A DNA stretch of 64,000 nt, taken from NCBI GenBank assembly GCA_963758525.1, contig CAVWVQ010000003.1:2016001-2080000 (forward strand). The letters run 5' to 3'. The number at the start of each line of letters is the position of its first letter. The first letter of the stretch is position 1. Both the position numbers and the translations under genes were made by a program. This document shows, piece after piece, positions 3,372 to 4,109 of the stretch. The notes beneath the pieces are model-generated. The model ran no database searches, was not told the DNA's origin, and saw nothing but the letters and a program-made list of their open reading frames with translations. This DNA is from an uncultured Phycisphaerales bacterium. Lineage in GTDB: Bacteria > Planctomycetota > Phycisphaerae > Tepidisphaerales > Tepidisphaeraceae.

Positions 3372-4109
3372 ATGCGAGTGCAGGACAGAATGGCTTTCGC
3401 GCAAGCCGCCCGAACGTTCAACTGCTGGATCCTGGTTCGGCGCACGAATCCGGATTCGTTGAAATACGTCGGCCTGCCCGGGTACACGCCCAAGCCGATT
3501 GACTGCAAGGCCAAAACCGCCAACAACCCGTCGCATCCGCTGGCCGGGTTGGTAGTGGACCCGGTCCGCGTCCCCCAGGCCTTCGAGAGCGACAAGCTGC
3601 CGAAGGTGAAACAATGCTGGGAGGCCTTCTCAAGCTCGGTTATGGGGAACGGCGGCCGTTACGCGGTTGTCACGGAGAACGTTTCCAGGCATTTCGGCTG
3701 CGTCACGCTGGGCGGGAAATTCGTGCACGGCGACTACGATCTAAAGGACATCATTCTCGCCGACCAGTTGCACCGAAACCTCGCCTCGGTGGAAATGCTG
3801 CAGGGTCAGCCGCACATGCGCGGGCCGCGGGTATTGCAGGTGCAGCAGTTCGTCAACGCCCGCATCGGCGCCGACATGGTTCAGCACGGCGGCGAGGCGC
3901 AATTCGCCGATCACGCGGATGAACCGATCGACTGCTTCGGCCCCGACATGAGCTGCCGCGTGTTCCTCAACGAGCTGGCGGTCCGCTCGTGGTACCACGA
4001 AATCAATCGGGAAGTCATCGACCTGAAGAAACACCCCGCGTCATCCTCCGGAGCCGGCGGAGGCTTCCAGGGCTGGACGCCCCGGGTTATCCGCGGCGGA
4101 AAGGAATAA
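3372..4109 (+). CDS. Putative edema factor/ExoY-like (class II) nucleotidyl cyclase domain protein, candidate T6SS effector
   Basis: Motifs FAQAARTFNCWILVRRTN, GYTPKPIDCKAKT, LAGLVVD, HGDYDL and DMVQHGGE occur in the same order as the EF/ExoY catalytic motifs. The true start may be the ATG at 3299 if indels lie at ~3330 and ~3372. Confidence 0.7.
   Translation: MRVQDRMAFAQAARTFNCWILVRRTNPDSLKYVGLPGYTPKPIDCKAKTANNPSHPLAGLVVDPVRVPQAFESDKLPKVKQCWEAFSSSVMGNGGRYAVVTENVSRHFGCVTLGGKFVHGDYDLKDIILADQLHRNLASVEMLQGQPHMRGPRVLQVQQFVNARIGADMVQHGGEAQFADHADEPIDCFGPDMSCRVFLNELAVRSWYHEINREVIDLKKHPASSSGAGGGFQGWTPRVIRGGKE

Follow-up and report, generated by a model that had tools for sequence, protein, structure and literature searches.

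A stand-alone minimal protein predicted to have the EF/ExoY cyclase fold, associated with T6SS-bearing environmental bacteria

What is a gene resembling the cyclase toxins of animal pathogens doing inside the T6SS cluster of a planctomycete? The stretch of DNA analysed here (64,000 nucleotides from an uncultured Phycisphaerales bacterium; the window) carries at 3372-4109 a gene for a 245-residue protein, which had been read from its motifs as a stand-alone cyclase of the edema factor (EF)/ExoY type. Annotation of the window with Pfam and NCBIfam placed this gene between clpV/tssH (533-3277) and hcp/tssD (4273-4761; PF05638, TIGR03344). Upstream of clpV is the 3' end of tssG (2-496), and downstream of hcp are vgrG/tssI (4754-7516) and a spike/effector module (7530-13919) consisting of a pentapeptide-repeat gene, PAAR-DUF6531, Rhs and a DUF2169 adaptor. 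All of these features, like those given below for the protein itself, are on the plus strand. Just 5' of the window lie a sigma-70-family gene, tssA, tssB, two tssC genes, tagJ, tssE and tssF. The genes tssK, tssL and tssM are ~810 kb off on the same contig (L089, G000:C3:2831356-2840048), and these core parts are therefore present in the genome too. Note that the tssK-tssL-tssM locus is bordered by ORFs of no assigned family and that its tssM region appears split. The hcp and vgrG genes are the sole copies found in the genome, the cyclase-like gene is single-copy, and clpX is present.

In the assembly clpV occupies several frames. Its last piece (1724-3277) has VI_ClpV1 as best NCBIfam match, below the cut-off because the gene is split; frameshifts divide clpV (533-3277) and both tssC genes (L085:12952-16269). 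An independent short-read contig matched 699-958 with 0 substitutions and had two extra bases near 922, so at this point an assembly error seems likelier than decay as the cause of the clpV break. Among sequencing runs, two DNA runs with small shares did not reach the cyclase-like gene, and no RNA run was listed as containing it. No promoter or terminator was found in a scan of 3200-4400. Further along the cluster, the C-terminal 200 residues of the Rhs protein (9478-12759) weakly match the NCBIfam 'lonely Cys domain' (E 3e-4). The DUF2169 gene starts 23 bases after Rhs with no immunity ORF between them, a hint that this T6SS may be aimed at eukaryotes. Beyond DUF2169, the region 14064-16644 holds two ORFs without a Pfam match, of 676 aa and 221 aa; the latter has a lipoprotein-like N-terminus and is, as a guess, a TssJ-like lipoprotein.

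The 245-residue ORF is a real gene, given its 371 homologues, a GC3 of 0.82 like that of its neighbours, and low dN/dS values (0.04-0.21 in 17 of 18 homologue pairs, mostly pairs of orphan copies; the remaining pair was saturated). The family is under purifying selection. Every motif quoted in the original prediction was present at its residue. A longer N-terminus, for which a check of 3299-3372 had been suggested, is ruled out by an in-frame TGA two codons 5' of the ATG, and Met occupies the start position in 112 of 120 aligned homologues. The protein had been described as having neither a signal peptide nor an adjacent immunity gene. Both descriptions are borne out: a crude hydropathy screen found no hydrophobic signal-like N-terminus in any of 120 sequences, and the next ORF is hcp.

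We next consider whether the protein has the fold and active site of a class II cyclase. Two AlphaFold models had pLDDT values of 87.5 and 91.0, and the CA/CB catalytic fold of class II cyclases is present in the predicted model. Foldseek with the first model returned 22 matches at E ≤0.001; the rows shown, to rank 24, were all EF, CyaA or ExoY, and the next row had an E-value of 0.59. VIA-align against 48,161 chains gave seven chains with Z ≥8, again exclusively EF (14.1), CyaA (13.8) and ExoY (12.7; ExoY-type range 10.3-12.7), followed by a chain at Z 4.2. A profile of 125 diverse members matched Vibrio ExoY (E 8e-9) and EF (E 7e-6), motif aligned to motif.

The folded core, residues 1-217 (3372-4022), aligns with EF 307-637, CyaA 19-353 and ExoY 42-355. 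Within the core, R23 (3438-3440) corresponds to EF R329. In motif I (3492-3515), K41 and K48 correspond to EF K346 and K353, and K46 is located at EF H351. The metal pair D121/D123 (3732-3740) corresponds to EF D491/D493, and H172, encoded together with the switch-B-equivalent loop at 3885-3929, to EF H577. This numbering rests on taking residue 291 as the first of the 1k8t chain, an assumption that reproduces the residue numbers in a published account. In the 125 rows of the profile, R23 is kept in 125, K41, D121 and D123 in 124 each, K48 in 123, and K46 and H172 in 122 each. The mapped EF residues are assigned to phosphate binding (R329 among them) and metal binding in passages of PMC9223806. 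Motif spacing is shorter than in EF, as had been noted (73 residues against 138 between K48 and D121, and 49 against 84 between D123 and H172). Structure search, profile search and conservation thus agree with the proposal of a compact EF/CyaA/ExoY-fold member with its catalytic residues in place, and on the modelled active site we consider it distinctly probable that the family cyclises NTPs.

The active site departs from that of EF in one respect. At position 178, F178 in this protein and Asn583 in EF, 105 of 125 rows have Tyr or Phe; the switch-B Asn feature is absent, and the chemistry may for this reason differ from that of EF. The neighbouring Q177 might substitute for the Asn. Within the core, both models are least confident at residues 171-180 (pLDDT 65 and 74). 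Switch B is described as disordered in free EF in a part of PMC9223806, and the low model confidence is weak evidence of an echo of this disorder.

The family comprises proteins of ~220 residues, mostly from Acidobacteriota, Planctomycetota and Bacteroidota. The 371 phmmer homologues (E ≤0.001) came from 806 candidates; in the 120 matches listed, the median length was 219 aa and identity 45-60%. A profile search of 1.84 billion representatives (50% identity) returned 593 at E ≤0.001 and 188 at 1e-30, and 16 of 148 newly found representatives exceeded 350 aa; it is from this search that the fusions came. As weak evidence, a search restricted to longer proteins (589-2000 aa) scored 7,991 candidates and matched one. 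A genome scan confirmed 139 stretches, of which the best 80 were kept, mostly from Acidobacteriota and Planctomycetota, with Bacteroidota and a few others. Some bins seem to carry the wrong label (L036 and L037 are identical, and L050 has T6SS genes that share 74-80% identity with those of a Chitinophagales bin). No relatives were found in the viral contigs and plasmids searched, and an ESM Atlas search with homologue P0031 was uninformative, yielding only scores ≤0.85 to unrelated TPR/Sel1 clusters. EF and ExoY were reached by family profiles only: searches with the single protein gave no Pfam or NCBIfam match at E ≤0.1 and no meaningful PDB sequence match. The suggested check against PF03497 (Anthrax_toxA) accordingly gave no match for the 245-aa protein, the gathering cut-off not being reached; PF03497 matches 4 of 119 family members, with a best E-value of 1e-5.

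Which of the activator-binding parts of the known toxins are retained? In place of switch A (EF 502-551) stands a short beta-hairpin, residues 135-151 (3774-3824). It is highly conserved among close family members, to a lesser degree among distant ones, and is a candidate activator-sensing surface. At the C-terminal end, the structural alignments stop at EF 637, CyaA 353 and ExoY 355. Switch C comprises EF 630-658 and CyaA 348-364, as given in a section of PMC9223806, and the ExoY anchor spans K347-V378, the last five residues being required for actin binding and activity according to text of PMC8595890. The core of the compact protein ends where switch C and the ExoY anchor begin, and the anchor is without counterpart. 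A C-terminal helix is absent in both models, and 194 of 307 distinct members end ≤10 residues past the core. The calmodulin/actin interface formed by switch A and switch C is thus a feature that the compact family does not have. Judging from the models, the protein would work like a class II cyclase core but lacks two of the features that mark the calmodulin- or actin-activated toxins. The original prediction included cargo activated by a eukaryotic cofactor. We retain the cargo part; as the switch C/anchor region is missing, it is doubtful that calmodulin or actin could activate the protein in the known way.

In this protein the core is followed by a low-confidence Gly/Ser linker (4023-4106) ending PRVIRGGKE. 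A [RKT][VLI][IVL]xGG terminus, preceded by a variable Pro/Gly linker, is found in 21 of 106 members with an 11-70-residue tail, many of these 21 being related; one Bacteroidota member on another branch has the motif too. In the rest of this genome's ORFs the same terminus was found in 5 of 3,458. By eye, the tail was likened to the XB peptide of SspB, a basic-hydrophobic C-terminal stretch on a flexible linker that is a ligand of the ClpX N-domain, or zinc domain (as presented in part of PMC3983244). By this analogy the tail could be a ClpX tether, and since it is located where switch C would be, it could equally well act as a signal for loading or as a substitute for the anchor. No description of the tail motif was found in the literature searched.

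To what extent is the family linked to T6SSs? A survey of homologue neighbourhoods, suggested in the original prediction, supported the link strongly at the level of the genome, less so at that of the locus. TssC was detected in 70 of 80 carrier genomes (45/50 and 25/30; best 80 of 139 stretches), compared to a background of 15-23% (54/301 in the order of G152, 21/141 in the family of this genome and 93/401 in its phylum; the family-level tallies include the unpublished genome G062, a non-carrier). Seven of the ten TssC misses have T6SS-type genes in the locus, namely six Bacteroidota-type loci and L036; the rest are L018, L049 and L080. Presumably, PF05943 misses the sheath protein of the six Bacteroidota-type loci. 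In three samples, with the centre genomes excluded, 8 of 8 full-length carriers were TssC-positive versus 157 of 832 other genomes (Fisher p 2e-6, a value overstated by kinship). When broken and distant matches were counted too, 11 of 13 were TssC-positive, the exceptions being G458 (in pieces) and G825 (distant and fused, in a 1,524-aa frame). The gene is accessory, because only 8 of the 165 TssC-positive genomes of these samples (~5%) carry a full-length copy.

At the locus level, copies within T6SS clusters accounted for 20 of 80 loci (best 80 of 139, with up to 8 kb on each side). The position between clpV and hcp is therefore not typical of the family, 60 of 80 relatives being without a T6SS gene in that range; among loci of at least 12 kb, 13 of 50 had T6SS genes and 37 had none. 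The slots vary: after clpV (the window, L044, G118), after PAAR (L002, L030), after hcp (L076), before tssK (L072), after DUF4123 (Bacteroidota) and, within the cluster, on the strand opposite to it (L016, L027, L028). In-cluster copies are flanked by VgrG, PAAR, DUF4123, Hcp, ClpV, TssK or TssA, and no T6SS gene is a constant neighbour. On a quick tree these copies are scattered, with 13 label changes, at least four of them forced by well-supported branches; the family appears to have entered T6SS clusters repeatedly. No shared 7-mer above shuffles was detected in 79 upstream regions. A specific PAAR clade, near several in-cluster copies, was rejected as general carrier, as it was not found in this genome. 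Inside the planctomycete T6SS cluster of L002, a SecA_DEAD protein (8668-10686) is encoded directly after the cyclase-like gene.

Two functions had been offered for the protein, T6SS cargo and a cyclic-nucleotide switch for the T6SS. Cargo is favoured because the T6SS is near-constant in carriers, the slot is variable, carriage is ~5%, and the domain occurs in polymorphic-toxin architectures; the switch received little support. We regard export of the compact protein by the T6SS as probable.

The neighbours and fusions of the gene bear on its target. There is no family-wide immunity neighbour among the first genes on each side (117 of 146 neighbours scanned, 29 cluster duplicates being left out). 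Copies outside T6SS clusters have unrelated housekeeping genes or unknown genes as direct neighbours. Only among close kin do downstream ORFs group together, save for an 84-86-aa ORF in 4 of 6 Bacteroidota-type loci (L047:7687-7947, L050:8672-8926, L051:8674-8928, L058:8735-8995), which belongs to no known family and is a candidate inhibitor or chaperone. In L083 (1-3054), L084 and L121, polymorphic-toxin-like proteins of 750 aa end in a distant EF-like domain. Directly 3' of this fusion, in 3 of 3 genomes, is a conserved Cys-containing 265-aa ORF with no Pfam match and no homologue in the stand-alone loci or this genome. The two form a candidate toxin-immunity pair, which points to bacterial targets for that distant fused clade. 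Other fusions of the related domain involve PT-HINT, Gln_amidase, VgrG3-like C and PT-TG. The domain is thus used as a toxin module, and an effector role is therefore favoured for the stand-alone form. The Bryobacteraceae fusions L062:6060-11327, L065:5934-9743 and L078:630-2135 lie beside genes for a VirD4-like coupling protein and for AAA ATPases, which may indicate a different delivery route; the Gln_amidase toxin domain is found in the long fusions of this group.

We propose that the gene encodes a stand-alone minimal EF/ExoY-fold protein, likely a T6SS-exported cyclase that is switched on in a target cell, for which a soil protist or fungus is the most probable candidate. Taken as a whole, we hold this reading to be evenly poised between right and wrong. 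It starts from the in silico match of fold and catalytic residues to class II cyclases. D121, D123 and H172 would hold Mg2+ and R23, K41 and K48 the triphosphate, so that ATP, and perhaps other NTPs, would be cyclised. In line with the computed T6SS association, the ~25 kDa protein, having no signal peptide, would take a non-covalent ride with the tube or spike. In the producer it would be near-silent, its switch-B loop remaining loose until a factor of the target cell docks, most likely onto the conserved hairpin standing in for switch A. Because switch C is missing, such an activator is probably not bound in the way that calmodulin and actin bind EF and ExoY. More speculatively, the tail of a subset might tether spare copies to ClpX as a safety device. 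We infer a eukaryotic target from the missing immunity neighbour, a criterion of the RIX paper, whose predicted anti-eukaryotic effectors likewise have none in the portion considered (PMC10435454); from the characterised class II toxins, described as inactive in bacteria (PMC9223806, in part); and from T6SSs acting on amoebae and fungi, which are documented (PMC13577199, in part).

Several observations weigh against this reading. T6SS genes are missing near 60 of 80 copies and none is constant, three in-cluster copies (L016, L027, L028) are on the opposite strand, three fused members lie beside a VirD4-like coupling protein rather than a T6SS, and two matches are in TssC-negative genomes (G458, G825). 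The actin-binding anchor of PaExoY is without counterpart, and the EF Asn583 position is Tyr or Phe in 105 of 125 rows. Moreover, the 45-60% identity across phyla is high for a fast-evolving effector. A T6SS-delivered enzyme directed against bacteria, with no cofactor or a bacterial one, would drain ATP or flood a rival with cNMP, the producer coping by low expression, tail proteolysis or an unlinked inhibitor. The absent switch C/anchor would fit such an enzyme, as would the likeness of the tail to a bacterial unfoldase-binding peptide and the fusions to PT-HINT and PT-TG, which are mostly interbacterial systems. The 265-aa ORF after the distant fused clade (3/3 genomes) and the 84-86-aa ORF flanking the gene in 4/6 Bacteroidota-type loci point the same way. 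However, neither candidate immunity protein has a homologue in other loci, the 265-aa one is absent from this genome, most orphans reside among unrelated housekeeping genes, and the characterised toxins are described as inactive in bacteria (passages of PMC9223806). Thus, we consider an antibacterial enzyme unlikely. Likewise rather unlikely is a bolder proposal: the family may be an anchor-free, minimal-core branch of class II cyclases that travels by T6SS, with no activator or a new one and possibly bacterial targets, a ClpX tag replacing immunity in some lineages.

The chemistry, rather than the target, might also differ. With the same fold and delivery, the protein could be a nucleotidyl transferase or form a product other than a 3',5'-cNMP, considering that the ribose contact EF Asn583 has become Tyr or Phe, that switch A, the source of base contacts, is cut to <20 residues, and that there is weak structural kinship to minimal nucleotidyltransferases (Z ~4). 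However, the invariant catalytic residues and motif I are all kept in order and every strong structural match is a cyclase, making this quite improbable. Least probable, with slim prospects, is a cytoplasmic source of cyclic nucleotides, kept at its level by ClpXP, with which the producer would regulate its own T6SS. Tight T6SS dependence at the genome level together with a mostly orphan location, strong purifying selection, the possible ClpX tag and the absence of an export signal are what such a regulator would explain; a full-length copy in only 8 of 165 TssC-positive genomes (three samples) is not, nor are fusions that are toxin scaffolds. The protein has no sensory domain, no shared upstream 7-mer rose above shuffles, and a cNMP-binding domain was found in 1 of 117 scanned neighbours, on an oxidoreductase (L019).

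Were the bolder proposal of an anchor-free branch true, the family would supply the first demonstrated case of a class II cyclase travelling through a T6SS, and the first case of one working without a eukaryotic activator or with a new one. The known sources of EF, CyaA and ExoY are animal pathogens, and a need for calmodulin or actin is the defining trait of these toxins. Here the same catalytic machine, with about two-thirds of the aligned EF span and free of the anchor, is predicted in T6SS-bearing environmental Acidobacteriota, Planctomycetota and Bacteroidota. The family would offer a candidate clue to the targets of unstudied T6SSs and a view of the origins of pathogen toxins. A stand-alone anchor-less family in these phyla was not described in the literature searched (subscription papers and supplements were outside its scope). 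In the parts considered, Zhang et al. 2012 (PMC3482391) contains no 'edema', 'adenylyl cyclase' or 'nucleotide cyclase', PMC6688995 mentions a cyclase only as a two-hybrid tool, and a 2026 review of anti-eukaryotic T6SS effectors contains no 'cAMP' and two 'cyclase' passages, one concerning ADP-ribosyl cyclase. Note that the supplements of PMC8595890, PMC10435454 and PMC12135965 could list members of the compact family.

How does the compact protein compare with the known systems? It shares the fold of the Bacillus anthracis EF catalytic domain (1k8t, 1xfv; PF03497), with an rmsd of 4.2 over 209 residues at Z 14.1, and the order and identity of R329, K346, K353, D491, D493 and H577. Identity to EF is 16%. 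In contrast to EF, with an aligned span of ~330 residues, the core has ~217, the CB region is halved, switch A is much shorter, and switch C, the helical domain and the PA-binding domain are absent; Lys replaces His351 and an aromatic residue Asn583. The Bordetella CyaA catalytic domain (1yrt, 1zot) has the same fold, at Z 13.8. Unlike CyaA, the compact protein has no RTX delivery moiety, and the calmodulin-binding switch A (199-274) and switch C (348-364) are reduced or absent. Pseudomonas aeruginosa ExoY and the Vibrio MARTX ExoY-like domains (5xnw, 7p1g, 7p1h, 8bjj; Z 10.3-12.7) again share the fold. Vibrio ExoY is the best sequence-profile match and also has Lys at the His351 position. The alignment ends near ExoY 355, however, without the actin-binding anchor helix (347-378), and the compact family is associated with the T6SS, not with T3SS or MARTX, and with non-model phyla of soil and freshwater.

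Among T6SS effectors, the RIX/WHIX proteins, in the portions of PMC10435454 and PMC12135965 considered, have a cyclase-like toxin domain and a T6SS link in common with the compact family, and the RIX cases (PMC10435454) also lack an immunity neighbour. The original statement that no such enzyme was known from a planctomycete T6SS calls for a correction, adenylate-cyclase-like T6SS effector domains having already been predicted in these fusions. As far as the descriptions allow a distinction, RIX/WHIX are 1-4 proteins fused to a delivery domain, whereas the compact family comprises hundreds of stand-alone proteins. Belyy et al. (PMC8595890, in part) proposed, on the basis of 14 sequences, that there are class II cyclases for which the activator is neither calmodulin nor actin, a published question for which the compact protein, small and probably soluble, would be suited. 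Their groups have different activator-binding regions, whereas the compact family has nearly lost one; it is by description that the two are set apart, and overlap is possible.
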